DNA from: Candidatus Norongarragalina meridionalis
GTDB taxonomy: Archaea > Micrarchaeota > Micrarchaeia > Norongarragalinales > Norongarragalinaceae
Direction: 5' to 3'
Assembly: GCA_902384935.1 (NCBI GenBank)
Contig: CABMDO010000012.1
Coordinates: forward strand, 1 to 64,000
Length of the DNA: 64,000 bases
Each line of letters begins with the position of its first letter. Positions within the stretch are counted from its first letter, which is position 1. Under the pieces are notes generated by a model. That model did no database searches and was not told the origin of the DNA. It was given only the letters and a program-made list of their open reading frames with translations. Positions 4,437 to 63,534 of the stretch are shown here, piece after piece. A program made the position numbers and the translations under genes.

Positions 4437-4799
4437 CTAGGCGCCGCCCTTCCAGTGCGGCGGTTCTTCCTCCTCAAGAAGCGCCTTCCTCTCCTTCTCC
4501 TTCCGCTTCTTCCACGCCAGGTATCCTGCGACTGCGAGGACGCCAAACACCGCCGCGCCAAGGGTTATGATTTTGCCGTTCTCGCTTCGCGCGTAGGCGC
4601 CCTTCCAGACGCACATGCAGTAGTCGGGCGATTCTTTGTCAAGAACAAGCTCCATGGAACCGCATTCCTCCTGAATCTTCGGGCAGTAAAGCGAGCAGCT
4701 GGTTTCGTTGACTAAGGCGAACTCGTTCGGCGACGGAGGGCATGTCGCCGCGGCTGCGAACGAGGCGAAAAGCAGGAACGCGAAAACGCCGGCCTTCAT
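4437..4799 (-). CDS. small secreted, C-terminally membrane-anchored Cys protein
   Basis: 120 aa. Signal MKAGVFAFLLFASFAAAATC, 6 Cys, a TM (AAVFGVLAVAGYLAW), and a KKRKEKERK...EEEEPPHWKGGA tail. ATGA overlap with the upstream gene. Confidence 0.5.
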   Translation of the reverse strand: MKAGVFAFLLFASFAAAATCPPSPNEFALVNETSCSLYCPKIQEECGSMELVLDKESPDYCMCVWKGAYARSENGKIITLGAAVFGVLAVAGYLAWKKRKEKERKALLEEEEPPHWKGGA

Positions 4800-4800
4800 T

Positions 4801-5223
4801 TCATTCCCCGACGTCCTTTCTTACGGCCCTGCTGCTCGCTTCGCCGCCGAGCATTTTGGCGCCTTTTGCCCTCAGAGCATCACCGAGTTTGGCGAGTATT
4901 TTCCTGCCGTGCTCGTTCTTGGAAACGAGCGTGAAGTAAACGGGTCTGAACGAGTCGGATTCCCTGAATCCTGGCACGAAGAAGCTCATCGTTTCGATGT
5001 GGTTCTCGATTTCGAAGTGTTCCTCCAGAATCCTGTTGATTTTTGAGATCTCGTTAAGCATTCTTATTGTCTGGGCGGCGATGCGATGCCGGGGATCCGA
5101 CGTGTCCTTCGGAACGGGAAAATACATGTGGATGCCGGGGTTTTCGCCGCCAAATTCCACGAAGTGATGCAGCCCCCTCCCGATTATTTCCTTCGCGGCG
5201 GCTTCGTGGGCGTTCTCTCGCAT
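4801..5223 (-). CDS. hypothetical protein, paralog A of 6167..6640
   Basis: Aligns with the 6167..6640 product (RGLHHFVEFGG..MYFP vs RGLDHFVVEGG..LYFP; LAKLGDALRAKGAKML vs LGRLSKALEKAGVRKM). Start set at the Met where the alignment begins. Confidence 0.5.
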   Translation of the reverse strand: MRENAHEAAAKEIIGRGLHHFVEFGGENPGIHMYFPVPKDTSDPRHRIAAQTIRMLNEISKINRILEEHFEIENHIETMSFFVPGFRESDSFRPVYFTLVSKNEHGRKILAKLGDALRAKGAKMLGGEASSRAVRKDVGE

Positions 5224-5370
5224 AAGCAGACGTAATAGGCGCCGCCATATATTTGTTTTTCTAGGGATCGGGAGAGATAATATAAACAGCCCGCGGTTGC
5301 CCGTTCCGGAGCCGAGCAAACGCGTGGAAGCAATCGCAAGAAGAACGCCGAGGCGGTTTAAAAATATGCG

Positions 5371-6166: not shown

Positions 6167-6640
6167 TCATCTATTTCCGCCCTTCGCCTTCCTCTTCGGC
6201 AATCCCTCGAGGAAGTCCTCGACTGCCCGCCGCCGCTCCTCGTCCCCGGCGCGCTTGATTTCCTCGTCGCGCGCTATCGCCCTGACGCCCTGCGTGGGGT
6301 TCATCTTCCGCACGCCGGCTTTCTCCAGCGCCTTGCTAAGCCGTCCGAGCAGTTCGCTTCCTCTCGGCGTAGCCGCGCTCAGCACCCCGTAAACCGGATG
6401 TTCGTCCTCCTTGTAGCCGAAGCGCACGATTCCCGCGTCGACGTGGTTGTCCGCCTCGAAGAAGCGGTCCAGCATCTCCTTGGCTTCGATTGTCATGGCG
6501 CGCGCCCGCGCCTCCTGGTCGCCGACGAGCGCGGGGAAATAGAGCTGGAGCGTGCCGCCTTCCACGACGAAGTGGTCCAAGCCGCGTTCCACGAGACGTT
6601 TGGCGACGCTTTCCATGAGAAACGTAATAAACTTCCGCAT
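6167..6640 (-). CDS. hypothetical protein, paralog B of 4801..5223
   Basis: See paralog A. The C-terminus KRKAKGGNR plus an out-of-frame tail (..EEPPHWKEGV) looks like a fused remnant of a 4437-type gene. Confidence 0.5.
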   Translation of the reverse strand: MRKFITFLMESVAKRLVERGLDHFVVEGGTLQLYFPALVGDQEARARAMTIEAKEMLDRFFEADNHVDAGIVRFGYKEDEHPVYGVLSAATPRGSELLGRLSKALEKAGVRKMNPTQGVRAIARDEEIKRAGDEERRRAVEDFLEGLPKRKAKGGNR

Positions 6641-6653
6641 ATATCTGCTTTTC

Positions 6654-7508
6654 ATGAAGATGACCGCCATCGGAAGGATACGTGACATCCCGAAATGGGC
6701 TCACCGCGGTGGTTTCGATCGTTTGTCCCCTGCCGAAAGACGGGAAGTTGTGGACGGCTACCGCATCGCGGTCGAGACGTTCGGCAGGCCGCGTTCCAAA
6801 GAGGAGGCGGCGGCGCAGGTCCGTGACCTGCTCAGCGCAACAGTGTTCCACTCCGTCTCTAAAAAACTCGTTATTTCGCCCTCGATTCCGAGGAAAAAGA
6901 CGCCGGATTTCCGCCGCAGGCTGTCCAAGGCGGTTTTCTCGCCTCGCGGCAAATTCGGTCCCGGCGGGACCGCATCGTCGAGCGGGCGAATACGGCTTTA
7001 TGATTTTACCGCGCCCACCGCCGCGCACGAGGGGGCGCACATCATCCTTCGCAACTATCTGGGCGAGCACGAGTTCCGGCCGCTTGCAACGGCAATCGAC
7101 GAGCTCGTGAGCTACCAACGGGACGAATTTTTCTCCTACCTTCCCTACGAGCTTTATTTGAAGAACAGCGTCGTCAGAAATCCCAGCAAATACGCAATAC
7201 AGCATTCGTCGGAAACCGGCAAAAAAAGAAAAGCGTACGCCGTCGGCAGGGGGATAGCGCTCGACGCCATTGAAATTCTGGAAGAACTGGGCGAGAACGG
7301 CAGGTACGCGCCCTACAATCTGGCGTACAAGTACGTCGGTTATCTGGCGAAGGGGCAGTCGCCGGCGCAGGCGCGGATCAGCGTGTTCTGGGATTTCGTA
7401 AAAGCGTTTCCCGACTCGCCGAAGGTTCGCGAGTACGTGCTGCCCGAAGTCGAACGAAGCAGCAAACTGCTCGCTGCGGTGGACCGCGAGCTGAAAAGGA
7501 AGCACTAG
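6654..7508 (+). CDS. hypothetical protein with an HEXXH zinc-peptidase-like motif
   Basis: Start at MKMTAIGRIRD, preceded by cgtaataaac/catatatc TATA-like elements. Motif AAHEGAHIILRNYLGEHEF. The opposite-strand 389-aa ORF is an Arg-rich artefact. Confidence 0.45.
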   Translation: MKMTAIGRIRDIPKWAHRGGFDRLSPAERREVVDGYRIAVETFGRPRSKEEAAAQVRDLLSATVFHSVSKKLVISPSIPRKKTPDFRRRLSKAVFSPRGKFGPGGTASSSGRIRLYDFTAPTAAHEGAHIILRNYLGEHEFRPLATAIDELVSYQRDEFFSYLPYELYLKNSVVRNPSKYAIQHSSETGKKRKAYAVGRGIALDAIEILEELGENGRYAPYNLAYKYVGYLAKGQSPAQARISVFWDFVKAFPDSPKVREYVLPEVERSSKLLAAVDRELKRKH

Positions 7509-28348: not shown

Positions 28349-28422
28349 AGCCTCCGATGGGATTCGAACCCACGACTTCGTGCTTACCATGCACGCACTC
28401 TACCAGGCTGAGTTACAGAGGC
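28349..28422 (-). tRNA. tRNA-Thr (anticodon GGU)
   Basis: Reverse complement gcctctgtaactcagcctggtagagtgcgtgcatggtaagcacgaagtcgtgggttcgaatcccatcggaggct. 7-bp acceptor, TTCGAAT T-loop, anticodon loop aUGGUaa. CCA not encoded. Confidence 0.8.
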
Positions 28423-28904: not shown

Positions 28905-30524
28905 ATGGACGCCGTAAGCGGGAATCTCGTCGACGTGCGCGGGGGGTGCGTTTATCCGGCAACCGTCGAAATCGAGGCTGGGCGAATAGCGCGCATACGG
29001 CGCGAGCACGGGAAATTCGACAATTACCTCCTCCCTGGCTTCATCGACGCCCACATCCACATAGAGAGTTCCATGCTCACCCCCTCGGAGTTCGCGAGGA
29101 TAGCGACTGTGCATGGCACGGTTGCCACTGTTTCGGATCCGCACGAGATAGCCAACGTGCTCGGCGAGAAGGGCGTCGAGTTCATGATAAGCGATGGAAA
29201 GCGGACGAACTTCAAGTTTTACTTCGGCGCGCCCTCGTGCGTTCCGGCGACGACGTTCGAGACCAACGGCGCGACGCTCGGCGCGAAGGAGGTTACATCG
29301 CTCCTGCGCAAGAAGGAGATACTGTATCTCAGCGAGGTTATGAACTACCCCGGGGTAATCGCCCGCGATTCCGAGGTGATGGCGAAAATCACCGCGGCGA
29401 AAACCCTGCGCAAGAGGGTTGACGGTCATGCGCCCGGTGTGAGGGGCGCGGAACTGAAAAAATACGCGGCTGCGGGAATAACGACGGATCACGAGTCGTT
29501 CGCCTACGATGAGGCGCTGGATAAGTTGGGGAACGGGATGAAAATCCAGATACGTGAGGGAAGCGCGGCGAAGAATTTCGAGGCGCTGTATCCCCTGATT
29601 GAAAAATACCCGAAAATGTGCATGTTCTGCTCAGACGACCGGCATCCCGACGACCTGCTGGAAGGGCACATCAACCTGCTCGTGAAACGCGCGGTTGCGA
29701 AGGGCGTCGGTTTGTTCAAGATTCTCAGGTGCGCGTGCGTCAACCCCGTTGAGCATTACGGTCTGGATGTCGGGCTCCTTCGCGAGGGCGATTCCGCGGA
29801 CTTCATAGTGGTCGACAACCTGCGCGACTTCAACGTTCTTAGGACGTATGTGCGCGGGCAGATAGTCGCCGAGCGCGGGAAGCCCCTTTTGAGGCGCGTT
29901 AAGTCGTCGAAGCCTAACAAATTCCGCGCGCGGAAGAAGTCGAAATCCGAGCTCGCCGTGCACAATACGCTGAACGTGATGGCGGTAACTGACGGCCAAC
30001 TGGTGGACAAGGCGATGGTTGTGTCCATCAGGGAGCTCGTCAGGCACGAGATAAAGATAGATCCGAAGACGGACGTCCTGAAAATCGTAGTGGTAAACCG
30101 CTACGCGGATTCGAGGCCCGCGGTGGCGTTTGCGAAGAACTTCGGATTGAAAAAAGGAGCGATAGCCTCTTCGGTGGCGCACGACTCGCACAACATAATT
30201 GCAGTTGGTGTGAACGACGAACTCATCTGCAAGGCGATAAACTGCCTGATACGGCACAGGGGAGGGATATGCGCGGTTGACGAGCGTTCCGAGCACGTCC
30301 TCCCGCTGCCGATAGCCGGCGTGATGTCGGACGGCGATTTCGCCTCAGTTGCCGAAAAATACTCTGAGCTCGACGGAATAGCAAAGTCCTACGGCTCGAA
30401 ATTGCGCGCGCCCTTCATGACGCTCTCGTTCATGGCGCTGCCCGTGATCCCGCAGCTGAAGCTGACGGACAAGGGACTGTTTGACGTCACCAATTTCAGG
30501 TTCGTCAACCTGTTCAACATGTAG
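28905..30524 (+). CDS. ade: adenine deaminase
   Basis: 539 aa. Amidohydrolase metal site GFIDAHIHIESS...SDPHEIANV, full Ade architecture. TAG stop at 30522-30524. Confidence 0.75.
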   Translation: MDAVSGNLVDVRGGCVYPATVEIEAGRIARIRREHGKFDNYLLPGFIDAHIHIESSMLTPSEFARIATVHGTVATVSDPHEIANVLGEKGVEFMISDGKRTNFKFYFGAPSCVPATTFETNGATLGAKEVTSLLRKKEILYLSEVMNYPGVIARDSEVMAKITAAKTLRKRVDGHAPGVRGAELKKYAAAGITTDHESFAYDEALDKLGNGMKIQIREGSAAKNFEALYPLIEKYPKMCMFCSDDRHPDDLLEGHINLLVKRAVAKGVGLFKILRCACVNPVEHYGLDVGLLREGDSADFIVVDNLRDFNVLRTYVRGQIVAERGKPLLRRVKSSKPNKFRARKKSKSELAVHNTLNVMAVTDGQLVDKAMVVSIRELVRHEIKIDPKTDVLKIVVVNRYADSRPAVAFAKNFGLKKGAIASSVAHDSHNIIAVGVNDELICKAINCLIRHRGGICAVDERSEHVLPLPIAGVMSDGDFASVAEKYSELDGIAKSYGSKLRAPFMTLSFMALPVIPQLKLTDKGLFDVTNFRFVNLFNM

Positions 30525-30578
30525 CGCTACCGTTTCTGCGTCGCGTCCTCCTTCATTACCATCTTCACTATCAGGTAG
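30524..30578 (+). repeat. direct repeat 1 (55 bp), a duplicate of the mscL 3' end
   Basis: gcgctaccgtttctgcgtcgcgtcCtccttcattaccatcttcactatcaggtag is identical apart from 1 mismatch to 31689..31743. Encodes (minus strand) ..YLIVKMVMKEDATQKR*. Confidence 0.85.
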
Positions 30579-31688
30579 GCCTGCATAAAACTTCTTTTTA
30601 GCCCGACGGGCAGGATTGGAACGGCCCCGTCTCTTCAGTCGGATACGAGTAGTCGGTATAACTGTCATAGGGCCCGAGGCCGATCAGCCAGAGCGGGCAG
30701 AACAAGCCGCTGAGGCCATTGCCAGTGAAGCATCCGAGGTCGCAGGAACGGTGGCACAGCCCGCCAATAATCGGAATAGTCAACTCGCCATTTTCCGCGC
30801 AGGCGTCGTAGCAGGCATCGTGCGTCCTGCAGCCGCCGTTGCTTCCGCACTGCTGCACGGCGTATGTGCATTGGTAGAAGCAGCCTTGGCCGTCGTTTAC
30901 GCATTGGGTTTTCTTGGGCAGCTGCTTGCATGTCCATGGGCAGTCCGCGCCGCACGCTCCCCTGCATTCGGACCCGCTGGCGATAGTGGGGTTGCGAGGC
31001 TGGGTTCCGCTGACTGCCTGCGGGCACGGCGGACGAACATATGCGCATGTTGGAGTTGGGCTCGGGCTGACTTCAGGCGGTTCAGGAGGAGGTGCGCGCG
31101 AGGCTTCGGGAATCATCACCGGCGAGGCTTTGGGCATGGGTGTCGATGTTGGAGCGGGTATTTTTGTCGCTGTCGGAGCGGGCATTTCTGTCGGCGTCGG
31201 AGAGGAACCCGGGCATCCGTTGGCGTCGATTCTTGTTCCGCTCAGTGAGGCTGAGCCTTTACAGCATTTGTCTTGGTCGTAGTAGTCCCAGGTGTAGCTG
31301 CCCGTGAAAGAGGAGCAGTCGGACGAGAAGACCAGGTCGAAGGCGGAAAGTGTGGCCGTGCCGGTGCCGTCAGTGACGGTCCTGCCGGGCATGCTGAGAG
31401 TGTTGCCCAGGAACGTACCCCTCGCGGGGCCGTCGCCCCAGTCGCTCACGTCCGCAATCTGCATGTCGTGCTGTATGATGACCTCGCGGACATCCGTCGC
31501 GATGCCGGTTCCGCAATCGGTTTCATCGTCGCTGACGGTGACGCTCCAATGGGTTATGCCGACATAAGTCCCAAAAGTAAATGTGGATTGCGCGGTGACC
31601 ATTTGCGGCAAGAAAAGGATGAAAAGCAGGACCAGTGAGCAGACAAAAACCGTTTTCATTTCGTTCCCCATCACGATATCGCCTCTCC
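30579..31688 (-). mobile_element. single-gene cassette inserted at the mscL 3' end, flanked by 55-bp direct repeats (no recombinase)
   Basis: 1.1 kb between DR1 and DR2 carries only ORF 30598..31674. Sits between the convergent ade and mscL genes, whose stops would otherwise be 3 nt apart. Confidence 0.5.
30598..31674 (-). CDS. secreted Cys-rich protein with Pro/Thr linker (cassette cargo)
   Basis: Signal MMGNEMKTVFVCSLVLLFILFLPQMVTAQS. Linker PTPTEMPAPTATKIPAPTSTPMP. ~24 Cys in the C-terminal half (CGADCPWTCKQ...CHRSCDLGC). Confidence 0.5.
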   Translation of the reverse strand: MMGNEMKTVFVCSLVLLFILFLPQMVTAQSTFTFGTYVGITHWSVTVSDDETDCGTGIATDVREVIIQHDMQIADVSDWGDGPARGTFLGNTLSMPGRTVTDGTGTATLSAFDLVFSSDCSSFTGSYTWDYYDQDKCCKGSASLSGTRIDANGCPGSSPTPTEMPAPTATKIPAPTSTPMPKASPVMIPEASRAPPPEPPEVSPSPTPTCAYVRPPCPQAVSGTQPRNPTIASGSECRGACGADCPWTCKQLPKKTQCVNDGQGCFYQCTYAVQQCGSNGGCRTHDACYDACAENGELTIPIIGGLCHRSCDLGCFTGNGLSGLFCPLWLIGLGPYDSYTDYSYPTEETGPFQSCPSG

Positions 31689-31743
31689 GCGCTACCGTTT
31701 CTGCGTCGCGTCTTCCTTCATTACCATCTTCACTATCAGGTAG
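31689..31743 (+). repeat. direct repeat 2 (55 bp), the authentic mscL 3' end
   Basis: See DR1. Contiguous with the mscL coding sequence. Confidence 0.85.
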
Positions 31744-52870: not shown

Positions 52871-52978
52871 TCAAGCAGCCATTACGTTAGTCTTTATGAG
52901 GTACGCGACGGCGCTGACAAGGACGACTGTAGCCGTTATCAGCAGCGTGTACTCCATTGCGGTTTGTCCCTTCAGCAT
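52871..52978 (-). CDS. minor class III signal peptide pilin-like protein (35 aa)
   Basis: MLKGQ|TAMEYTLLITATVVLVSAVAYLIKTNVMAA. Not in the ORF track. Overlaps the end of the upstream T2SSF gene. Coordinates +-1. Confidence 0.5.
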   Translation of the reverse strand: MLKGQTAMEYTLLITATVVLVSAVAYLIKTNVMAA

Positions 52979-53886
52979 ACCAATCCCTTCCCTCCGACTA
53001 TGGAGAGGCTAAGCCATTTTCCCATCTCGTATATCAGGAGACAGGCAAGAACCATCAGAGGAACATACAATATATACCTTGCTATCTTTCCCTCGCGGAT
53101 TATGCCTATGGCGAAGGACGCGATGAGCGTCTGGAGCACCAGGAAGACGGTAAGCAGCGTGTTCAAATCGCACATGTTCAGCTGCCCCGCGCCCGGCATG
53201 GCGCCGGAAATCCCGACGTTTATGTAATTGACGATGCTCAGCGTGAATCCGAAGATGAAGGGCGAGAGGAATACCGAGGAAACGCTGAGGAAGAGCACGT
53301 GCATCGTGGTGCGCGAGTGGCGCTCGCGCTTGATTCTGAGGACATCGCGCGCGTCCTCGGAAATCTCCGCCATCACCTGCGCTACCCCCGCGCCTGCGCG
53401 TTTCGCGTCGACCACTATGGTCGCGGTGCGCCTGAACAGCGTGGAGCCGGAATTGTTGGCGCAATCAAGAAGCACGTCGTCGAACGTTTTTCCTTCGCGT
53501 AATTGGTGGAGCGAGCGCAGCAGATCCGCGCTGAGCGGGCCGTAGTCGGCGTGCGCCACCTCGTCCAGCGCGCTTTCGACTGTTCCGCCCGCCTTCAGCA
53601 CGAGCGCCATGTGCTTCAGCGCGTCGGGCAGCGCCGCGTCGATAGCGTCTATGCGGCTGTTGCGTATGCTTATCGGAATCGTGAGAGAAAGGCTCAATAT
53701 CGCGATGAACGCCATGCCCGAAACTATCGGGTTCAGCTTCAGCATCGAAAGGAGGAGGGCAGTCGCTACCGCGACGACGAAGAACATCCCCACGAAAAGT
53801 TCGAAAGCGAACGTGAACCCCGTCGCGGCGTAGTAGCGCCTCATCTCGGCGTATTTTTCTCCGACGTACACGATGGGGTTTTTCAT
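52972..53886 (-). CDS. T2SS-F-domain membrane protein (TadB/TadC-like, single domain)
   Basis: 304 aa. One GspF-like cytoplasmic domain (..LPDALKHMALVLKAGGTVESALDEVA..) flanked by TM blocks. Confidence 0.6.
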   Translation of the reverse strand: MKNPIVYVGEKYAEMRRYYAATGFTFAFELFVGMFFVVAVATALLLSMLKLNPIVSGMAFIAILSLSLTIPISIRNSRIDAIDAALPDALKHMALVLKAGGTVESALDEVAHADYGPLSADLLRSLHQLREGKTFDDVLLDCANNSGSTLFRRTATIVVDAKRAGAGVAQVMAEISEDARDVLRIKRERHSRTTMHVLFLSVSSVFLSPFIFGFTLSIVNYINVGISGAMPGAGQLNMCDLNTLLTVFLVLQTLIASFAIGIIREGKIARYILYVPLMVLACLLIYEMGKWLSLSIVGGKGLVC

Positions 53887-53887
53887 G

Positions 53888-54970
53888 CTACCACGCGGCG
53901 GGCTCCATCCTCTTGGTTACGTAGAGGATCGCTATCATCGTGAGCAGGATTCCGAGGAACGCGAGATGTATGAAATACGGGGGAATGCCTATGGACGCGA
54001 ACATGGGTATCTGCAGTATCGCGCTCATAATCGCGACGCCGACGGGCGCTACGACCGCCACCATGATGTATATGATGTTCACGAAATTCAGGCGCTCCGT
54101 GAAGTCGCGGATGCTCATGCGCGTCTCGAAGGAAACGTCGTCCGCGATGTCCGTGATAACCTGCGAGAGCGAGCCTCCGCTCCTGAAGGAGCGTATCATC
54201 TGCGTCAGCGCCTTGCGCAATCCCTTAGATTGCGTGCGCTTCGAAAGCGCGCCGAGCGCGTCCTCGTTGCTCATTCCGTTGTCCAAGTCGCTCAGCACTT
54301 TTCCGAATTCCTCGCTGAGCACGCCGTAATTCGAGTTCGCGACCGATTCCATCGCCTTCGAGAAGCTCACTCCCGCCTTTATCTGCGTCGACAACTGCCG
54401 CAAGGCGAAAGGAAGCACGCGGTCTATGTCGCGCGCACGCGACGCCGCCCTGTTGATGGGATAGAATATCCCGGCAAGCACGACGAGTATGAAAAACGCG
54501 CCTCCCACGAGCGGCGAAATCGCGGCGAGCGTCGCGTCGTTCAGCGCTATGCCGAGTATCAGGAACAGGATGGCGCCGAAAATAGCGCCGAGCACGGCGT
54601 TCACGGCAACCGCGATGAGGTACGCTTCCGGCGGAGTTTTCAAGCCGGCGGAATCGAGCGTCCCGCGGACTTTCTGCAACGCAGGCAAGCCAGACATCGC
54701 CTGCGCCAGCTTGGTGAAGGGCCCCCTGAACGCGGTGAAAAGAGAGCCCGCGAGCCCGCCTATCTTCTCAGCATCGAGCTTCTTGAAATCAAGCGGCTTC
54801 TCTCCCGCGCCTTCCATGCGTTCGCGGAGTTCCGCGCCTTTGGTGCGGAGAGAGGATTCGCCGCGCAGGCGCGTGACTATCCTTTTCAAATCCTCCTTCT
54901 CGGCGCCGCGCTCCTCCTTTTTTGTGACAACGGCCTGCTTTAGGCGCGCGAGCCGCTCGTTCGAAGGCAT
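53888..54970 (-). CDS. T2SS-F-domain membrane protein (TadB/TadC-like, single domain)
   Basis: 360 aa. ..LPFALRQLSTQIKAGVSFSKAMESVA..YGVLSEEFGKVLSDLDNGMSNEDAL.. is the GspF fold. Confidence 0.6.
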   Translation of the reverse strand: MPSNERLARLKQAVVTKKEERGAEKEDLKRIVTRLRGESSLRTKGAELRERMEGAGEKPLDFKKLDAEKIGGLAGSLFTAFRGPFTKLAQAMSGLPALQKVRGTLDSAGLKTPPEAYLIAVAVNAVLGAIFGAILFLILGIALNDATLAAISPLVGGAFFILVVLAGIFYPINRAASRARDIDRVLPFALRQLSTQIKAGVSFSKAMESVANSNYGVLSEEFGKVLSDLDNGMSNEDALGALSKRTQSKGLRKALTQMIRSFRSGGSLSQVITDIADDVSFETRMSIRDFTERLNFVNIIYIMVAVVAPVGVAIMSAILQIPMFASIGIPPYFIHLAFLGILLTMIAILYVTKRMEPAAW

Positions 54971-55016: not shown

Positions 55017-58000
55017 TTATTGGCACACGCAGTTGTCGGCTTCCAGCGCCTTTTCGTCGCCCTTTATTTCGCACGCCGCACTCCCGCCGGTGCTCATCGA
55101 CTTCTTTTCGTCGACGAGGCAGCTGTGCAGCGCGTCCGCGGACGAGCCGGTTATCGTGCAGCCCTGAAGAACGCCCTTCGTAAGTTCCGAGTACTTGTTC
55201 GCCGTGAAGCAGTTCGGGGTTCCAAGGTCGAAGCCGACGCTTCCGTCGGACTTGACGTACGGGAACGATATCGGCGGCGAGTTCGTGCTGGTGCCGCCGC
55301 CCTGTATCGAAACGAGCACGGAAGACAGCTGGGGCGTCGGAGCGGTTCCGAAGAACCCGCCGCTTACCATCACGCCGTCCCACGGCGTTCCGTCGATGTA
55401 GTCGATAATCTCGGCTTTCTCTTCCCCGCCCATAATGCCAGCTCCGCCGGCTGCGGGGTCGTACGCGAAGTCCACGAGGTGGATTCCGCCCTTGCCCTTC
55501 GCAGTCAGTCCGCCGAGCTTCATCGGCACGAGCACATGCAAGTCGTTGCTGTAGAGCGGAGTCTTCACGTTGACCGCGCCGGTAGTGGGATACATGGACG
55601 CCGTGAGGCTGTTCTTGACAGAGGGCCAGAACTGCTGCTGGGTTGCTGTTCCCGACGCGCCGAACGCGTAGTTGAGCAGCTGCGAGTTGCACGCCGCGGA
55701 ACGGAATGCGTCGCCGTAAACGTCGCCGAAATTATACGTGGGCGAATAGGATACGGGCACGTAGTTGCTGCCGTACATCGAATCCGAGTAAGAGGACATG
55801 TATCCGGGCGGCTGCGTCATCTGCTGGCTGCAGGACTCCTTCATGCTCTTCAGCGGATCCTTGCCGAGCTTCAGGCATGCTTGGTAAGTCGTCGCCTGCG
55901 CCATGTAATCCGCGATGGCGTCGTTGAGCGCCTTCTGGAACACGTCCGCCGTGCCCTTGACTATTCCCTGCGTGTCCGCCTTGGGAGTGTCCATCTGCTG
56001 CTGCGCGAACAAGCCGTTGAGTTCGTCGTTAAGCGCGCGCGACGCCGCGTCGTACTTCGCCTGGTCGCAGTAATTTGTGCCGGTGCACTCGAGCGCTTCG
56101 GCATCGGCGGGGCTTTCCCCTGCGCCCGGCTTTCCTCCGCCTTCGCCGCCGAGCTGTCCTGTCGCGGTTATCTTGCCGGACGCGGTTTCGGTCGTCGAGG
56201 CGGGCGCAGCCGGCGCTTCAGGCGCGGGCGCTTCGGTTGTCTTCAGATTTCCGATCACGTCACCCTGCATCCACGTGCCCTTCGGGTTTTCGAACCTTCC
56301 GCTGAGGTCGAAACCGATTGCGCCCGTGAACTCCTTGGTTTTAACGGTCACGGTTTTCGCCTGCTCCTTCGTAAGCGCGAGCATGCCCGCCTTCTTCGGG
56401 TCTATTGTCACGGAGCTGCCGCCGCCGGTTACGGTCATGTGCAGCGTCGGGTTGTTGTTGACGAACAGGAACGGCTCTTTGATGTTGTTGGCGTCGGTTC
56501 CGCGTCTGTATACGTTGCCCGACATCGGAACTATCATGAACGCGTAGCGCGCCGCCGTTTCATCGTCGTTTGATTCCACGCTTATTTTTATCTTCCTGGA
56601 GGCGCTGCCGAGCACCCCGCTGCTCTGGAGCGTGAGCGTGACGCTGTCCACCAGCGGTTCGATGCGAAGCTGCCCGTTCTCGTCGGGCTTGTAAACGGCG
56701 CAACCCTCCTTCGGGTTGAACAGCACCAGATAAGAGCGATACTGGTTCGCGGGCACGAGCGTTCCAGTTACCGCGTCCTGCAGCTTGTTTATCAGGGCGC
56801 TGAGCCCGAGGTCGCGCGAGAAGTCGTGCTCTATGTCGCGTATCACGAAGCATTTGTTCTTGTTGTTGTCCCAATTCACGAGGAGCTGCGTGTCCGCGCC
56901 GAGAAGGTTCTGTATCGAGAACGCGACTCCAGCGACGGGGAACAGGGAGTTGATTTTAATCGTCGCCTCGCCGCTGCTCGGCAGAGGACCGTTGCCCGTC
57001 CATCCGACTCCCGGAACGAGGACGAACTGGTCCTCCATGCTGCCCGCCACGTATCTCGAACGGGTGCTCGGGTTGAAGAGCTGCTGCGCGTGGTATTGCC
57101 CGAGCCTGCGCGCGAGCATGTTGCTGAGATCGAAGTTCGCGGGACTGCACTGGTCCTGCCTGAACGATACGCAGGACGTGAAGACGTGCGTGTTCACGTC
57201 GTAGTTGGCGTAGCACGAGCCGTTGTTCTGCAGTACGTTGCACGCGCTTTCGTTGCACAAATCGCAGCGTTTCGCCGAGCACGTGGCGTTCGGGGAAGGC
57301 GACGGAGACGGAGAAGGCGATGGTTGCGCGCACGCCAGGAACGCGTCCTTGCCGTCGGCGGTTTTCGCGTACTGGGGCAGGCAATAGCCGCCAGTCTTGT
57401 TGAGGTTGAGGCACTGCTGTTCCGTGCATTCCTTGCACGCAGCTGACGAGCATTTTTCGTTTCCAGTAGTCGTGTTCTTCTTCAGCGCCGCGCATTCCAC
57501 CTTTATCCACGCGGTTTGCGAATCCGTGGAACCCGTTGATTCGAGCGTAGTCGTGAATACCAAATAGCATTGGTCGCTGCGTATCGGCGTCATCACCACC
57601 TGCGTGCTCTTGCCGCCGGGAATAACTATAGTGTACCTGTCGTCGCCCGAGGACGTGACGCGCGAGCCCGCGAGCGAAACGCACGCGGTGCCCGAGAAAG
57701 CTGCGGAAACCGTGACGTCCGTCTTCAGCGAGTTTTCAATCGTTACCGCCTTGGCGTCGCACGTCATCGAAATCGCGGAGATGTCGGGCGCGTACGAGAG
57801 GAAGTCCGTCGCGGACACGCGTACCGTAGCGCGCGCATCCTCGTATCCCTGCTTGGACGCGACAACGTCGAACGTTCCCGGAGAAACCGGCAGCAGTCTC
57901 TTGAAAGTGTATTTGCCTTCCTTTCCTTTTCCGTCGGTGCCGTCGCCCTGGATTGCGTAGTCGCCGTTCGCTTCGCCCGAAAACGGCTCGCCTGTTCCTT

Positions 58001-60866
58001 CCTCGATGGCGACGCGCGCGTCGGTTATTGCCGAACCCGTGCTCGAGAATACGGTTGCGGTAAGGTCCGCCTTTGTTCCCGACTCCATGGTTGCGGGCTT
58101 TACCGCAACAACCATCGAACCCGTTCCTTCGACTATTACGTAGCGTTCGTCCGAAAGCAGCGTTCTTCCCGCATCGGTAAGCTCGAATTGCATGCGCGCG
58201 AAATCGCTCGGCTCCACGGCGCGGACGTCCGTCGCGACGCTGCCCTCGCCTGCGTCGTCGAGCGCAACGCCTGCGCTCCACTCGTCGGAGTTGTTCGCCT
58301 GTATGAACTGCAGCGCTCCGCCAAGCGAGCGTATGCGCACCGTGGGCACGGAAACGTCGCCGAATACCCGCACAGCCACGTTCGCGGTGAACGAGTGCCC
58401 GAGCCCGACGGTCAAACCGTTCGCGCCCTTCTCGGTTGTGGTGTTAAGTGTGATTATCATGCACGCGTTCTCCGTGCACAGGCTTCCGCCCTCGTTGACG
58501 TCGTATTTCGCGTCCGTGGTTTTCGCGCGGCATCCCTCCTTTGCCGCGGTGCTCTCCGCGTATCCCAACACCGTATCCTCGGGCGTGCGGTACCATACGT
58601 CCGCCTTCTTCGCGTAGGCGCGGTAATGGAACGATACTTTGCTTTTTCGCGTAGCGTTCGGGCTTACAAACACCTTCACCGCGAGAGTTTTCACGCCGAA
58701 CGATGAATATTCCTGCTGCACCCATTTTACGTGCGAGTCGCTCGCGTTGTCCGCCACTTCGTCGGTGCACGCGCTTTCCGCGTCGTACGTTCCGCCCCAC
58801 GTAATTTCCGCATCCTGCGGCTTGTCGAAATACGATATGTACGCCGCATCCGCGTCAAGAGTCGTGTTGTCGCCTATGCGGAGGTATGCTCCGCCGCGTT
58901 CCACGCCGCCGGGTATGTTCAAGGTAAGCAGAGCGAGATAATAGCGTCCGCGGTCGAGCGAACCCACCGCCTCGCCGCCATTGAGCGGTTCGAGCCTGAA
59001 ATCAACTACCTGCAGCTGCTTCGCCTGCGACGTCGGAAGCATGCGCAGTTCGTAATAAACGCTTCCTTCGTTGTCAACGGAAATCTGTTCGCTTTCGTAA
59101 TCCGCGAACCCTCCGGCGGTTGCCTTGAGCACTATCTTGCGGTCCGAGCGCACCTTCAGCGAGCACGTGCTGTTCAGCGGGCTCGTTCCCGTGGCGCACG
59201 TAGCGCTTGCGGAAGTCGCGCCTTCCTCGAACGCCTTCACCGTTGCGGTCAGCAGATTGCCGGTTGTCATGTCCGTCGCGTTGACGAATATCCTTCCGTA
59301 CGGCGCGGGCAGCTTCAGTTCCAGCGGCGATTCACGCGCTTCGAGCGTTATCTTCGTTATGTCGCTGTATCCGTGCACCGAGCCTGCTGTGGCATACGCC
59401 TTGATTTCCTCGAGCGGCAATCCCGCGAATGAAACGAATCCGTCGTATCCGGTTTCCTGCGAAGGCACGCCGAGCGAGAACCCGTCGCCGGTTACCAGTT
59501 CAACCGAAGCGAGCTCGACGCGCTTTCCGTCGGCGTCAAGAACGACTATGTCGAGCGTACCGCTGTTCCCCGCAACAAGCGCCTCGAGCGCTATTGTCTT
59601 GGAGTCTCCCGCCACCACGTTCTTCTCTATATGCGGAAGATAGCCTTCCGCGTAAATCGTAAGATAGCCCGCGCTTTTCGACGACACTTCCAGCACGCAC
59701 TCGCCGTGCGTGTCGGTGTTGCACGACGCGAGTTCGCGCAGAGGCGCGTCCGCCATCAGGAAGCGCACGTACGCGCCCTCGATCGACTGCCCCGCGTCCC
59801 CGGTAACCTTGACGTTGACGTTGCGCAAATCCGCCGCGGTTTTGCGCTGGAGCCTTGCCTTGAATTCCACGTAAGTTTCCGACGCCACGCCCTGCACGTC
59901 GTTCGCCGCTGCGCCGTTGTATCCCGCGTACGCATCGGACGGAGGTTCGACAACTACGTAGACGCGCGTGCCCGCTTCGGCGGCGGAATCGAAGAAAACT
60001 GTTCCCTGCGAATCAGTCACTCCCTCGGTTATGACGTTCGAGGAATCGGCGTCGTGCACTATTACGTGCGCGCCCTCGAGCTGGATTCCTCCGTCGTCTT
60101 CGACTGTAACGAGAATGCTGCCCTTGGACGGCGCGCTTCCGCCTTCGTCCTTGGGTTTCGCGCCATCGGGTGAAAGCGCGAGCGAGCACTGCTTCTGAGA
60201 CGCGAAGCACGTAACGCGGTCCGAAACGAATCCGTCGCGCGAGACGCGTATGTTGAAGATGTCGGAAACCCCTGCGAACTCGATGAAAGCGCTGCCCGTT
60301 GCGTCGGTGGCGAGTTCCTTGACGTTGCCCGCGGTGTCGGTGTATACTACGGACGCGGCTTCAAGCGGCTGGCCGTCCGCGTTCGTAACCGCGAGGGCAA
60401 TCCTGTTCGCCTCGCTTGTCGCGGGTTCGAGAAGCGCGGTAAAGCTCTGCGCGCCCGTAACCAAAACCTCGTTGCCATAGTCGGCGTAACCCGCTTCCTT
60501 TATCTGCACGAGCGCCTTTTTCCCGACGGGCAACCCCGTGAATTTCGCAACCCCGTTTTTGTCGGTTTTCAGGTCGAACGACTTGTCGTCTACCGTCAGG
60601 TGCACAAGCGCGTCCTGAATCGGCTCGTCCCCGGACATTACCGTAACCGTAAGCGCGGTTTTAGGCGACGCAACGTCCTGGAGAACGAAAAAGGCGCCTG
60701 CGCCGAGCAGGGCGACGAGCAGGACGAACACGGGCAGCGAAGGGATTCCCTTGTCCTCGATGGGGGTTACGAACCAATCCACCGCGGGCACGCCTTTCGC
60801 CTGCAGCCAGTCCATGAGCGCGTAATAGCGCTCTTCGATAGAGACGTAAATTTCCTTGAGTGCCAT
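55017..60866 (-). CDS. giant (approx. 1950 aa) N-terminally anchored surface protein / putative adhesin
   Basis: Start at MALKEIYVSIEERYY.. followed by the TM LPVFVLLVALLGAGAFFVL. Many carboxypeptidase-regulatory/Ig-like-looking repeats (VTxxDGxPLEGAxV). Cys-rich module (CSSAACKECTEQQC...PSPSPSPSPSPNATCSAKRCDLCNESAC). First gene of the pilus cluster. Confidence 0.6.
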   Translation of the reverse strand: MALKEIYVSIEERYYALMDWLQAKGVPAVDWFVTPIEDKGIPSLPVFVLLVALLGAGAFFVLQDVASPKTALTVTVMSGDEPIQDALVHLTVDDKSFDLKTDKNGVAKFTGLPVGKKALVQIKEAGYADYGNEVLVTGAQSFTALLEPATSEANRIALAVTNADGQPLEAASVVYTDTAGNVKELATDATGSAFIEFAGVSDIFNIRVSRDGFVSDRVTCFASQKQCSLALSPDGAKPKDEGGSAPSKGSILVTVEDDGGIQLEGAHVIVHDADSSNVITEGVTDSQGTVFFDSAAEAGTRVYVVVEPPSDAYAGYNGAAANDVQGVASETYVEFKARLQRKTAADLRNVNVKVTGDAGQSIEGAYVRFLMADAPLRELASCNTDTHGECVLEVSSKSAGYLTIYAEGYLPHIEKNVVAGDSKTIALEALVAGNSGTLDIVVLDADGKRVELASVELVTGDGFSLGVPSQETGYDGFVSFAGLPLEEIKAYATAGSVHGYSDITKITLEARESPLELKLPAPYGRIFVNATDMTTGNLLTATVKAFEEGATSASATCATGTSPLNSTCSLKVRSDRKIVLKATAGGFADYESEQISVDNEGSVYYELRMLPTSQAKQLQVVDFRLEPLNGGEAVGSLDRGRYYLALLTLNIPGGVERGGAYLRIGDNTTLDADAAYISYFDKPQDAEITWGGTYDAESACTDEVADNASDSHVKWVQQEYSSFGVKTLAVKVFVSPNATRKSKVSFHYRAYAKKADVWYRTPEDTVLGYAESTAAKEGCRAKTTDAKYDVNEGGSLCTENACMIITLNTTTEKGANGLTVGLGHSFTANVAVRVFGDVSVPTVRIRSLGGALQFIQANNSDEWSAGVALDDAGEGSVATDVRAVEPSDFARMQFELTDAGRTLLSDERYVIVEGTGSMVVAVKPATMESGTKADLTATVFSSTGSAITDARVAIEEGTGEPFSGEANGDYAIQGDGTDGKGKEGKYTFKRLLPVSPGTFDVVASKQGYEDARATVRVSATDFLSYAPDISAISMTCDAKAVTIENSLKTDVTVSAAFSGTACVSLAGSRVTSSGDDRYTIVIPGGKSTQVVMTPIRSDQCYLVFTTTLESTGSTDSQTAWIKVECAALKKNTTTGNEKCSSAACKECTEQQCLNLNKTGGYCLPQYAKTADGKDAFLACAQPSPSPSPSPSPNATCSAKRCDLCNESACNVLQNNGSCYANYDVNTHVFTSCVSFRQDQCSPANFDLSNMLARRLGQYHAQQLFNPSTRSRYVAGSMEDQFVLVPGVGWTGNGPLPSSGEATIKINSLFPVAGVAFSIQNLLGADTQLLVNWDNNKNKCFVIRDIEHDFSRDLGLSALINKLQDAVTGTLVPANQYRSYLVLFNPKEGCAVYKPDENGQLRIEPLVDSVTLTLQSSGVLGSASRKIKISVESNDDETAARYAFMIVPMSGNVYRRGTDANNIKEPFLFVNNNPTLHMTVTGGGSSVTIDPKKAGMLALTKEQAKTVTVKTKEFTGAIGFDLSGRFENPKGTWMQGDVIGNLKTTEAPAPEAPAAPASTTETASGKITATGQLGGEGGGKPGAGESPADAEALECTGTNYCDQAKYDAASRALNDELNGLFAQQQMDTPKADTQGIVKGTADVFQKALNDAIADYMAQATTYQACLKLGKDPLKSMKESCSQQMTQPPGYMSSYSDSMYGSNYVPVSYSPTYNFGDVYGDAFRSAACNSQLLNYAFGASGTATQQQFWPSVKNSLTASMYPTTGAVNVKTPLYSNDLHVLVPMKLGGLTAKGKGGIHLVDFAYDPAAGGAGIMGGEEKAEIIDYIDGTPWDGVMVSGGFFGTAPTPQLSSVLVSIQGGGTSTNSPPISFPYVKSDGSVGFDLGTPNCFTANKYSELTKGVLQGCTITGSSADALHSCLVDEKKSMSTGGSAACEIKGDEKALEADNCVCQ

Positions 60867-61656
60867 AATAAAAACTTGCCCGCGTATATATAAAAACGTG
60901 CTTAAAATCGCCTTCGGCGAAGCCGCCGCGAGCCTCGGAAAAACGCTCATAGTTGCGGACCTTCACCTCGGCATCGAACTCGAACTTCGAGCCCGCGGCA
61001 TAAACGCGAGGCAGCAGTGGCATCCTTGCGCGGTTCGCATAAACAAGCTGCTGAAGAAAATGAAATGCGGCAGCCTCGTGATTCTGGGCGACGCCAAGCA
61101 CGACGTCTACGGCTGCGACATCGAAGAGCGCACGATGATGAGGCGTTTCCTCGACAGCCTCGACACCAAGGACGTGCGCATCATAAAAGGAAACCATGAT
61201 TCCCTGCTCGAAGGCGTCGCGCCCATTATTCCCGCTACGGGCATGCGCATCGAAGACGGGGGCGAGTCCTACGGTCTGTTCCACGGGCATGCGTGGCCCG
61301 CCAAGGACGTGCTCGCAGCCGACATTTTTCTCATGGCGCACCAGCATCCCATGTACGAATTCAAGGACAAAGCCGGCAGATGGAGCGAGAAATGCTGGAT
61401 TTCGGCCGAAACAAAAGCCAATAAGCGGTTCGGAGTAATGGGGAAGCGCAGGGTTGTCGTCTTTCCGGCATTCGGCATTCTTTCCGGAGGCATTCGCCTA
61501 AATGCCGAAAAAGGAATCGGCCCGTTCTTCGAAAATCCGCTCCTGCGCAAGGCGACGGCATTCTCGCTCGAAGGCGCGCCCCTGGGTGCACTAAGCGTTA
61601 GCCGCCCGAAACCTTATACTGTTCTTTATACTTCTTTTCCGGAGGATATTTTTTAA
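60856..61656 (+). CDS. calcineurin-like metallophosphoesterase
   Basis: ..LIVADLHLG...ILGDAKHDVYG...IIKGNHD...GHAWP... (metallophosphatase motifs I-V). The C-terminal 22 codons run into the cassette insertion. Confidence 0.65.
   Translation: MSAIIKTCPRIYKNVLKIAFGEAAASLGKTLIVADLHLGIELELRARGINARQQWHPCAVRINKLLKKMKCGSLVILGDAKHDVYGCDIEERTMMRRFLDSLDTKDVRIIKGNHDSLLEGVAPIIPATGMRIEDGGESYGLFHGHAWPAKDVLAADIFLMAHQHPMYEFKDKAGRWSEKCWISAETKANKRFGVMGKRRVVVFPAFGILSGGIRLNAEKGIGPFFENPLLRKATAFSLEGAPLGALSVSRPKPYTVLYTSFPEDIF
61531..61588 (+). repeat. direct repeat copy 1 (~56 bp) of the phosphoesterase 3' end
   Basis: aaaatccgctcctgcgcaaggcgacggcattctcgctcgaaggcgcgcccctgggt matches the copy at 62327..62382 with 4 mismatches. 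Coordinates +-3. Confidence 0.8.
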
Positions 61657-62326
61657 TTAGTTTAGAAAGATCCTTCGTTACAAATTCGTCCTTCCGTCCG
61701 AACGGCCATATGCTCCTCTTTTTTCTAATCCACCAGTCTCCGAATCCACCTACCGGAGCCTGCCCACCGCATACCAAAAAATGCCCTTTTTTCTTCAAAA
61801 TTTTATTTATTTTTGTGTAAAAACTATCTGTACCCAGCTCCGCTTCGCCGTATTGTGCGGCGCCGGAACGAGAAAGTATCAAATCATACTGTTTGTTCTT
61901 TTTCACTAGCGAATCTATGGTTCCTATATGCAGATAGTCCAAATGATTTTTTGCATTACCGTACCTTTGCGAAGGGATGTTTGTAAGCGTCAGCCCCTCA
62001 ACTTCCGCATTTATTCCTTCATCATGAAGCAGTTTACGCAGCTCTATTGCCGCAATTCCGGCACCGCAACCTAAATCCAGTATCCTTATTGGCTTGCCTT
62101 TCTGCCGACGCATTATGCCTCTTGCCAACTCCAAAAGATTTCCGAAATCATGCATGTAGCAGACGAGATCCCTTTTCGAATTGTATGAAGCGTATGCGAA
62201 CTGAACCGGCGACTCGCGATCCTCTTTCCTTCCTTTCCAAATTGTTGATGCTAGCTCTTTCCTGTATTTCTTCTCATTTTCCGACCGCCTTTCTACCATA
62301 TAGAAATAATAATGAGCCATAACTTT
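61589..62326 (-). mobile_element. low-GC single-gene cassette (methyltransferase) flanked by ~56-bp direct repeats
   Basis: ~740 bp, AT-rich, containing only ORF 61598..62320. Lies between the convergent phosphoesterase and TraB-like genes. No recombinase. Confidence 0.5.
61598..62320 (-). CDS. class I SAM-dependent methyltransferase (cassette cargo)
   Basis: Motif I ILDLGCGAGIAAIEL. 240 aa, low GC. Confidence 0.65.
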   Translation of the reverse strand: MAHYYFYMVERRSENEKKYRKELASTIWKGRKEDRESPVQFAYASYNSKRDLVCYMHDFGNLLELARGIMRRQKGKPIRILDLGCGAGIAAIELRKLLHDEGINAEVEGLTLTNIPSQRYGNAKNHLDYLHIGTIDSLVKKNKQYDLILSRSGAAQYGEAELGTDSFYTKINKILKKKGHFLVCGGQAPVGGFGDWWIRKKRSIWPFGRKDEFVTKDLSKLIKKYPPEKKYKEQYKVSGG

Positions 62327-62382
62327 AAAACCCGCTCCTGCGCAAGGCGACGGCTTTCTCGCTCGAAGGCGCGCCGCTGGGC
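62327..62382 (+). repeat. direct repeat copy 2 (~56 bp), the probable original phosphoesterase 3' end
   Basis: aaaacccgctcctgcgcaaggcgacggctttctcgctcgaaggcgcgccgctgggc continues in frame to ..SLKL plus TAG (62395-62397), overlapping the convergent TraB-like stop (cTAg). Confidence 0.8.
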
Positions 62383-62393
62383 TCGCTCAAGCT

Positions 62394-63023
62394 CTAGCAC
62401 CCGAAATATTTCTTTAAGAGCGGTAGGTATCTCTTGTAGGCGGCAACATCGCCTTCAGCGTCGTAGGAACCAATTAGCGACTTCGCGTGTTTCGAGTACT
62501 GAACGTCCTTGCTGAACCCAAGCAACTGCATGTGCTGGGCGTGCGCGGCTCCGACTACAAGCGTGTCACAGCCTTCTTCCTTCGCCTTTCGAAACATCAG
62601 AATGCTTCTATAAACGCTCACCGCACGCGCAAAACTCTCCACGCTGAAACCCGGGACCATTCCAACCGCGTCTATAGCAATTCCTCTAAACAATTCGATT
62701 TTCTCCGGGTCATTTTTCCCCTCCGGAACCGCGCCTTTGTTCAACAGCCATCCGTGCAGGTCCGAAAGAAGGGCGTTATTGCTAGATGATTCCAAGCTAA
62801 CAAGCCTAGCGCCCTTTCGTTTCGCCCACAACCCGACCCCCTGGAAAAATCTGGAGCCCTCGACACCACTCCCCTCGATCCCTGTCTTGGAACCCTTTCT
62901 AAGGCGAGTGCTCACAAATCTCAAGTTTCCAGGTCCTGTTGGTACCACTCCGTAACCTTTGCCATTGATAAAAGCGATTTTCGGAATGACCGTCGTAACG
63001 TGCGCGACGCCTAATATTCTCAT
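62394..63023 (-). CDS. TraB/PrgY/GumN-family protein
   Basis: MRILGVAHVTT.. (GxxHV) and ..TLVVGAAHAQH.. are TraB family hallmarks. Confidence 0.45.
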   Translation of the reverse strand: MRILGVAHVTTVIPKIAFINGKGYGVVPTGPGNLRFVSTRLRKGSKTGIEGSGVEGSRFFQGVGLWAKRKGARLVSLESSSNNALLSDLHGWLLNKGAVPEGKNDPEKIELFRGIAIDAVGMVPGFSVESFARAVSVYRSILMFRKAKEEGCDTLVVGAAHAQHMQLLGFSKDVQYSKHAKSLIGSYDAEGDVAAYKRYLPLLKKYFGC

Positions 63024-63126
63024 AAGCTAATCTGCGGTCGCGGGTTAAAAACCCTATCAAAAACCTTTAAATCCCGTCGTGCGCAATATAGGTTTCCGAA
63101 TGCTTATCGTTTACAGGGGTGTTTGA

Positions 63127-63534
63127 ATGGGCAGAGGAAGGGAACGCATGGTCGTCTGCGAAAAATGCGGACGCCAGACCCGCCGCGACAAGGCGGTGTT
63201 TCTGGAAAAAGCGATATTCGTGAATCCGCTCGAGCGCAAGGACGTCATCCAGGGAGAGCCGTACGCGCCGCGCGTAACGCGCGAGGTTGCCTACTGCCCG
63301 TCCTGCGGCAAGCACGGAAGAATCTACGAGAAGAAGGCGCGCATGAACGCGCGCAACCGCGAGCGCGAGCAGTTCCGCCAGTCGCTCGGCATGGGGCAGA
63401 GCAGGCGCCCGACGCACCGCCCTCAGCACATGGGGCAGCAGTTCGGGACGGTGCAGAAGCCCGCGGAAAAGCCGGCTGAAGCGCCGGTTGCCGAAACGCC
63501 CAAGACGGAAGAAACGCCGACGGCTCCCGAATAA
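63127..63534 (+). CDS. zinc-ribbon protein resembling ribosomal protein S26e
   Basis: C-x2-C ... KDKAV ... Y.P..........YCPSCGKHGRIYEKKARMNARNRE pattern (S26e-like). Pro/Ala-rich C-terminal tail. Confidence 0.4.
   Translation: MGRGRERMVVCEKCGRQTRRDKAVFLEKAIFVNPLERKDVIQGEPYAPRVTREVAYCPSCGKHGRIYEKKARMNARNREREQFRQSLGMGQSRRPTHRPQHMGQQFGTVQKPAEKPAEAPVAETPKTEETPTAPE

Follow-up and report, generated by a model that had tools for sequence, protein, structure and literature searches.

We analyzed a 64-kb window (the whole stretch of DNA considered here) from the genome of Candidatus Norongarragalina meridionalis, a tiny DPANN archaeon of the Micrarchaeota. Our subject is a small unit in which the 3' end of a phosphoesterase gene occurs twice and encloses a single neighboring gene, which encodes a class I S-adenosylmethionine (SAM) methyltransferase. 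The proteins encoded by the phosphoesterase gene, the methyltransferase gene, and the 209-aa ORF beyond it are each 100% identical to database proteins of this species. This phosphoesterase gene, referred to below as the anchor, is followed by the methyltransferase gene (termed M), an orphan open reading frame (ORF; termed T), and the gene encoding ribosomal protein S26e. The first copy of the repeat (R1) belongs to the working phosphoesterase gene and the second (R2) separates M from T. A sister unit lies at the 3' end of the mscL gene, and the features of both are compiled in Table 1.

Table 1 Positions of the features in and around the phosphoesterase and mscL units of the 64-kb window.
Feature	Position	Strand	Remarks
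Displaced mscL 3'-end remnant, 55 nt	30524..30578	+	Abuts the adenine deaminase stop
mscL-unit cargo, Cys-rich secreted 357-aa protein	30598..31671	-	GC 0.60, host-like; same direction as mscL
Working mscL 3' end, 55 nt	31689..31743	+	54/55 identical to the remnant
Phosphoesterase (SbcD-related, archaeal), anchor gene	60898..61656	+	TIGR00024, E=9.5e-30; weak Metallophos match
Repeat copy 1 (R1), 55-nt high-identity core	61532..61586	+	Working phosphoesterase 3' end
Tail 1, diverged in-register continuation of the repeat	61587..61611	+	Contains the M stop (TTA 61598-61600) and the last 4 M codons
Cargo M, class I SAM methyltransferase	61598..62320	-	GC 0.42-0.43; Methyltransf_31
Right junction, TTTAAAACCC	62323..62332		Joined to R2 at microhomology AAAAnCC
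Repeat copy 2 (R2)	62327..62381	+	Displaced, non-translated former phosphoesterase 3' end
Tail 2, old tip ..GSLKL and TAG (62395-62397)	62382..62406	+	Overlaps the stop of the 209-aa ORF T and its final 4 codons
Cargo T, 209-aa orphan ORF	62394..63023	-	GC 0.52; absent from all relatives
Conserved intergenic region X	63045..63126		Homology to relatives resumes; includes the S26e promoter region
Ribosomal protein S26e	63127..63534	+	Direct downstream neighbor of the phosphoesterase in deeper Micrarchaeota

The cores of R1 and R2 form a direct repeat, recovered by a repeat scan and by BLAST, in which 52 of 55 nucleotides are identical. The mismatches fall at repeat positions 5, 29, and 50, the identical blocks measure 20-23 nt, and the longest exact run common to both copies is 23 nt. 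When the window was shuffled 20 times with trinucleotides preserved, comparable direct repeats were never longer than 19 nt. The similarity continues beyond the core, ungapped and in register, to a total of 80 nt (61532-61611 and 62327-62406, 81% identity), and the mismatches are distributed very unevenly along it: 3 are found in the 55 positions of the core versus 12 in the 25 positions that follow (56-80). Splitting the same data 56/24 gives a Fisher p of ~2e-4 for this unevenness. The register is kept throughout the diverged part, where about 13 of 25 positions match, compared with a match probability (p_match) of 0.256. All three differences within the core are synonymous third-position changes in the phosphoesterase frame.

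The reading frames distinguish the two copies. The anchor ORF is open from 60856, with an annotated start at 60898, and its relatives are 82-84% identical with lengths of 234-241 aa. Through R1 its frame extends over 22 further codons (ALSVSRPKPYTVLYTSFPEDIF) to a TAA at 61654-61656; these last 22 codons constitute a new tail that reaches into the insert, and the phosphoesterase ORF overlaps the methyltransferase ORF by 59 nt. R2 would be translated as NPLLRKATAFSLEGAPLGSLKL and then ends in a TAG at 62395-62397, which overlaps the stop (62394-62396) of the convergent ORF T. Because an in-frame TAA (62326-62328) directly precedes R2 and the old stop is retained, R2 is a closed remnant with the layout of a displaced tip. 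Like the fragments left by 3'-tip displacement, it closely matches the working end, is untranslatable, and has T as the next gene. A first-pass annotation of the DNA had claimed three of these points, namely a ~56-bp duplication of the phosphoesterase end, a second copy that looks like the ancestral end and runs through ..GSLKL to a stop overlapping that of the convergent gene, and a first copy fused to a new tail entering the insert; all three hold, with coordinates that needed shifting by only 1-2 nt. It had also described the DNA between the copies as low-GC and as holding only a methyltransferase, which is what we found.

The segment between R1 and R2 comprises 740 bp with a GC content of 0.42, compared with 0.575 for the window, and contains one ORF, M. 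The M protein matched the Pfam family Methyltransf_31 with 28.4 bits (cut-off 27) together with four related families, and its translation contains LDLGCGAG, which carries the GxGxG SAM-binding pattern of class I methyltransferases. By composition, M is foreign cargo. A word-index search of 5.8e9 proteins retrieved M itself only, and a HMMER search of 1.84e9 representatives returned only generic methyltransferase matches with E values of at least 1.8e-8; the sole match in PADLOC (mad2, 22.7 bits) corresponds to the generic methyltransferase domain. The likely start of M is the ATG at 62299, which gives the annotated 233-aa form and would give a leaderless transcript.

T was also its own only match among 5.8 billion proteins. 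The first-pass annotation had labeled T as TraB-like and had described it as convergent with what looked like the ancestral phosphoesterase end; the label gained no support, and T is not an ancestral partner of the phosphoesterase gene. Assignment to TraB/PrgY/GumN found no support in Pfam (even at E<=10), NCBIfam, PHROG, or PADLOC, no relative was found in the Protein Data Bank, and the single-sequence AlphaFold2 model reached a predicted local distance difference test score (pLDDT) of 42, which makes it unusable. As for the ancestral arrangement, same-genus relatives carry an unrelated gene of 309-312 aa at this place, and deeper relatives carry nothing before S26e.

On its right side the M insert ends in CTTTAAAACCC, followed across the junction by GCTCC. 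It overlaps the sequence GAAAATCC with which R1 starts, yielding a microhomology of 6-7 nt, and it also resembles the left edge of region X, which reads GTTAAAAACCC in the window and ATTTAAAACGC in relatives. The junction contains a minus-strand TATA box ~28 nt upstream of the M ATG. This spacing is the geometry expected of a leaderless archaeal transcript, and M is probably expressed from a TATA box formed by the junction itself. Similarly, the left edge of X provides a minus-strand TATA-like box ~27 nt from the start of T. The GC content rises along the array from M (0.42) through T (0.52) to the host (0.575), and therefore M, the cargo beside the gene body, looks like the most recent arrival.

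Comparison with relatives indicates that the space between the phosphoesterase and S26e genes varies in content. In same-genus relatives (loci L001-L008) the gene order is a giant surface protein, the phosphoesterase, a gene termed G, S26e, and a PrsW protease, where G is one minus-strand gene for a membrane protein of 309-312 aa that is unrelated to M and to T. At the DNA level, the window is homologous to these relatives up to 61592 and again from 63045. In deeper Micrarchaeota (42-47% identity), S26e or an S26e-sized gene starts 3-150 bp after the phosphoesterase gene, leaving the slot empty (L009, L010/11, L092-94, and L095). In one further Micrarchaeota lineage (L176, 4620-10162) four genes separate the two, encoding a ribonucleotide reductase, two unknown proteins, and a THUMP protein, and in the window the slot is occupied by M and T. 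Since deeper Micrarchaeota lack intervening genes and other lineages hold different ones, the slot was empty ancestrally and has been filled independently several times, and the phosphoesterase-S26e gap is a recurrent hot spot of gene gain in Micrarchaeota. The tail region of the phosphoesterase is variable among relatives as well, with indels, so that tail sequences and slot contents both differ from lineage to lineage, as alternative tips and cargoes do in 3'-tip displacement. When both window copies were aligned with three relatives, the stops of the unrelated minus-strand cargoes G, M, and T fell into one alignment column, a few bases beyond the conserved phosphoesterase end. Among the genes preceding the anchor, the window contains a 1977-aa Cys-rich surface-type protein (55017-60950), which is kept beside the phosphoesterase in same-genus relatives, and, on the downstream side of this protein, two T2SS-F-like genes for pilus/archaellum assembly membrane proteins (52972-54970).

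The mscL unit has the same layout, with a working 3' end, one cargo gene, and a dead copy of the same 3' end beyond it; that the two architectures match had been stated in the first-pass annotation. Its two copies are 98% identical in the core, compared with 94.5% for the phosphoesterase repeat. The high-identity cores of both repeats measure exactly 55 nt and their sequences are unrelated; the outer limits are fuzzy, extending to 58 and 80 nt under looser criteria. A core common to the two repeats, which had been suggested, is absent, the best matches between them being at chance level in shuffles. One candidate, CCGYTYCTGCG, looked promising but had been picked post hoc and was rejected. An empty mscL site was not encountered in a metagenome scan with mscL, where none of 80 loci had any neighbor gene in common with the window, nor was a second mscL 3' end seen in the metagenomic mscL loci, except as a tandem repeat in one of them. 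In that locus (L158, 400-700), the last ~45 nt of mscL and a hairpin (GAAGAACGTC TGAT GACGTTCTTC) begin an array of about three tandem units with a 114-nt period.

A scan for the empty mscL site with the adjacent adenine deaminase gene (28905-30524) in species-representative genomes gave no archaeal relative among the best 80, which come from Nitrospirota, Chloroflexota, Bacteroidota, and other bacteria and are 54-61% identical, suggesting that this gene moved from bacteria to archaea. The only tRNA gene of the window, a tRNA-Thr (GGT) on the minus strand (28349-28422), lies upstream of this bacterial-like gene, at a distance of ~480 bp. In a member of the Saccharibacteria (candidate phyla radiation; L023), two direct repeats of 41-47 nt that are 95% identical (4655-4705 and 5310-5355) flank one minus-strand gene of 178 aa immediately upstream of adenine deaminase, with no tRNA present. 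This unit is a repeat-bounded single gene in another ultra-small organism.

We looked for the machinery and the sequence signatures of mobile elements. The window is ordinary core chromosome, with genes for ribosomal proteins, SecY, PCNA, FtsZ, PurD, and NadA, and no integrase, transposase, or Cas1 was matched in Pfam among the ~55 window ORFs examined. The proposal that the cassette lacks a recombinase was thus confirmed, both within the cassette and near it. The only ORF of the insert is M, so that neither the transposase of a transposon nor the integrase of an integrative element is present inside it. There are no terminal inverted repeats, and the two inserts are dissimilar (best match of 11 nt, E=0.16). 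No Rfam family was detected in 60800-63200, and three scans of viral contigs found no relatives of M, T, or the Cys-rich cargo. It had been suggested that the cargo genes might recur elsewhere with other flanks; no recurrence was found, and all three proteins are singletons. A 9-mer, ACTTCTTTT, occurs 5 times, compared with 0.58 expected, always on the plus strand (11543, 30590, 55100, 61630, and 63541). At three of these five sites the similarity extends into the flanks, just beyond the ends of plus-strand genes, and two are at the left ends of both inserts. We rejected this 9-mer as an element end, as it is coding in M and located past the stop in the other cassette; we treat it rather as a T-rich feature of 3' ends. 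The methyltransferase unit as a whole belongs to no known mobile-element family and does not look like a new one. The recurring insertion mechanism to which the first-pass annotation pointed is possible, but host recombination accounts for the evidence no less well than a dedicated mobile element would.

Our preferred interpretation, to which we assign a probability of about 0.5, is that host recombination used the 3' end of the phosphoesterase gene as its only homology, adding a new tip with its cargo and pushing the old tip with its own cargo downstream. Two versions can be envisaged. A small circle carrying the phosphoesterase end, the new tail, and M could have integrated by a single crossover. 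Alternatively, linear DNA of a closely related haplotype could have recombined homologously within the phosphoesterase gene, its other end being attached by illegitimate joining at the microhomology AAAAnCC. In both cases the resident tip (..GSLKL and its stop) and its neighbor T would have been shifted downstream intact, and the new tip and M would have taken the place beside the gene body. The same scheme would yield the mscL unit, with its working mscL end, its co-directional Cys-rich cargo, and a 55-nt dead mscL end at the stop of adenine deaminase. We infer both the recombination route and the sister haplotype as donor. Recombination between two diverged alleles is favored over a fresh target duplication because the divergence between R1 and R2 is uneven and in register, because the phosphoesterase tail is the variable part among relatives, and because the right junction shows microhomology. 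If such allelic recombination took place, one parental haplotype would lack M, its phosphoesterase body continuing straight into ...CCTGGG(C)TCGCTCAAGCTCTAG, and the other would join the 5' flank of M to TATCAAAAACC, without R2 and T.

Several observations weigh against this interpretation. No sister strain, parental haplotype, or empty site was found in the collections searched, and every protein looked up by its exact sequence, M, T, and the Cys-rich protein among them, stood alone in its 90% cluster. The phosphoesterase end is not duplicated in nine other loci, including the occupied slots of L001-L008 and L176; the duplication process thus seems specific to this genome, or to what happened in it recently. 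Being short and overlapping a TATA box, which any archaeal gene needs, the microhomology could be a case of functional convergence. The fact that the core differences are all synonymous is only weakly informative: if the end had been duplicated in situ and the working copy kept under selection, we estimate p at roughly 0.15. Recombination also does not predict a core fixed at 55 nt in both cassettes, as a ruler-type staggered cut would; with two cases, the equality may be a coincidence. Finally, the closest precedents, which are discussed below, are bacterial toxin loci, and nothing here indicates a toxin-immunity function.

The equal length of the cores speaks in favor of a true target-site duplication, in which machinery acting in trans would make staggered cuts ~55 bp apart at convergent gene ends, insert promoter-less one-gene DNA, and leave the gaps to be repaired. 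Both cores have sharp edges and lie in unrelated targets, as a transposition-like process would give, and direct repeats of this kind are enriched in the window: with thresholds of at least 40 nt and at least 85% identity, we counted 4 in 64 kb compared with 12 in 1.465 Mb of other loci, 2 of the latter 12 being spaced more than 600 nt apart. However, no transposase, casposase, or integrase was found in the window, the ends of the inserts are neither conserved nor inverted, and the cargo genes are singletons. Moreover, the 25 nt past the phosphoesterase core are homologous in register and yet 48% diverged, which is unexpected for a fresh 55-nt copy. We know of no family that makes a 55-bp target duplication, and we consider this explanation unlikely.

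Archaeal and bacterial integrative elements are typically bordered by direct repeats, some tens of bp long, through which the target gene regains its 3' end. Direct repeats at both borders of the M insert indeed rebuild the phosphoesterase 3' end, as attL and attR would, and the unit could be a decayed element that had carried the target 3' end and whose tyrosine or serine integrase and other genes were lost, or whose integrase acts in trans (as in a cis-mobilizable element, CIME). The identical blocks of 20-23 nt could have served as the crossover core. On the other hand, the insert is only 0.74 kb long with one methyltransferase gene, no integrase was found in it or in the rest of the 64 kb, and no tRNA serves as the target, the single tRNA gene of the window lying elsewhere. 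The unrelated att-like sequence of the mscL unit, 30 kb away, would require a second integrase, and two separate decays to a single gene each would be unparsimonious. We therefore regard a decayed element as rather improbable.

Template switching in one cell, of the type described as microhomology-mediated break-induced replication or fork stalling and template switching (MMBIR/FoSTeS-like), is another explanation: a stalled 3' end would leave the phosphoesterase-T junction, copy foreign DNA, and return ~55-80 nt behind its point of departure. An insertion with a flanking duplication and junction microhomology (AAAAnCC) is the footprint expected of such an event. Nevertheless, the event requires foreign DNA as the template, and it leaves unexplained both the uneven divergence of core and tail and the equal 55-nt length in two events, so that we give it a low probability. 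We give a similarly low probability to a genus-specific insertion of single-gene cassettes at gene 3' ends, either trans-encoded or independent of a recombinase, that duplicates a fixed target stretch of ~55 bp. Here a ruler, for example a footprint of the size of a histone tetramer or a Cas1-like integrase, would set the ~55 bp, and the result would be small cassette arrays that use the resident TATA box and stop codon, resembling integrons without attC.

An assembly artefact, in which co-assembly of metagenomes would have chimerically joined strain variants or a free mini-circle, is very improbable. The source is a metagenome-assembled genome (LFW-144_1) obtained by MEGAHIT co-assembly of four samples with k of 27-127 from 2x150 reads (PMC8561730), a setting in which such joins may arise. 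However, the longest exact run between R1 and R2 (23 nt) is shorter than the smallest k (27), so the two copies would not have collapsed in the graph; since they have no k-mer in common, a repeat-induced misassembly is unlikely. The junction between M and R2 must moreover have been present in real reads, and a read of 150 nt is long enough to take in the 55-nt core and unique sequence to its left and right.

Two other regions of the window deserve mention. A low-GC island (1106-2611, GC 0.37-0.40) contains three plus-strand ORFs without a convincing Pfam match, and in the third of these a 21-nt unit is repeated six times in tandem (2361-2528) and encodes the heptad-like ETVKLQA. Farther along, the ORF at 4437..4799, which ends in ..KEKERKALLEEEEPPHWKGGA followed by its stop, has two partial copies of its 3' end, 85-86% identical and 1.7 kb to either side (2701-2744, 4430-4502, and 6105-6144), and the ORFs at 4801..5319 and 6167..6688 look paralogous by eye. 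We did not retain these repeats as clear instances of the phenomenon described here, as they look like what is left of a tandem array of paralogous genes in decay; alternatively, they are possibly displaced 3' ends.

Norongarragalinales are reported to have acquired many genes by horizontal gene transfer, and DPANN archaea, this order in particular, are reported to owe much of their metabolism to it (PMC12892359). Known mobile elements are few in these small genomes. Two fresh scars (94.5% and 98% identity) beside conserved genes, together with a variable slot, provide a concrete and testable footprint of gene gain in Micrarchaeota. If host recombination with one-sided homology is the correct explanation, the mechanism that displaces tips in bacterial toxin loci would also be a general route of gene gain in archaea. 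Should the equal 55-nt length hold genome-wide, it would instead indicate an unrecognized integration enzyme, and the interest of these units would be much greater.

Among known systems, the unit can be compared with integrative elements, integrons, homology-facilitated illegitimate recombination, and the displaced tips of polymorphic toxin loci. It shares with integrative elements the direct repeats of ~50-80 bp that rebuild the end of a target gene, and differs from them by the missing integrase, the 0.74-kb insert, and the occurrence of two cassettes with unrelated repeats. Ghaly et al. are said to have reported archaeal integrons in 2022. As in integrons, single promoter-poor ORFs are stacked in one orientation with a repeat at their 3' side, and the cassette that looks newer is nearer the fixed end. 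In contrast, the repeat here is the coding 3' end of a neighboring gene and has no attC-like hairpin (as DNA it folds no better than shuffles, with z of -1.18 to +1.23 for both repeats, the phosphoesterase repeat being folded on both strands), and of the integron hallmarks IntI, attI, and the promoter Pc, no attI was found and no integrase domain occurs in the genes on either side or in the remainder of the window.

Another parallel is provided by homology-facilitated illegitimate recombination in transformable bacteria, as the studies of de Vries & Wackernagel (2002), Prudhomme et al. (2002), and Meier & Wackernagel (2003) are cited in PMC5361080. According to this account, foreign DNA enters by one homologous anchor and is joined at its other end where a few nt of microhomology occur, as in one version of the event proposed here. 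Those cases, as cited there, are experimental and bacterial and usually delete recipient DNA, whereas the present case is a duplication in Micrarchaeota.

The greatest resemblance is with the Rhs, contact-dependent inhibition (CDI), and type VI secretion system (T6SS) loci of bacteria. For the displacement of Rhs tips ("C-terminal displacement"), homologous recombination involving circular intermediates has been proposed (Jackson et al. 2009, PMC2935791), and homology-facilitated illegitimate recombination was suggested for arrays of T6SS effector and immunity genes (Kirchberger et al. 2017, PMC5361080). These loci likewise consist of a conserved gene body whose 3' tip varies and is accompanied by a gene downstream, and their older tips, pushed downstream, keep a short conserved stretch, lack a start codon, and are still followed by their former neighbor. 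The routes proposed for them, circle-mediated recombination or one-sided homology with an illegitimate joint, also involve no dedicated recombinase. The differences lie in the host, here a DPANN archaeon, and in the anchors, here an SbcD-related phosphoesterase and mscL rather than polymorphic toxins. Furthermore, the tips are only 5-22 codons long instead of toxin tips, the cargoes are a methyltransferase and an orphan that point toward the anchor gene and show no sign of being immunity genes, and only two modules are stacked. On balance, the category that suits the feature best is 3'-tip displacement, or one-sided-homology integration, occurring here in a DPANN archaeon, at genes other than toxin genes and within a recurrent insertion hot spot.

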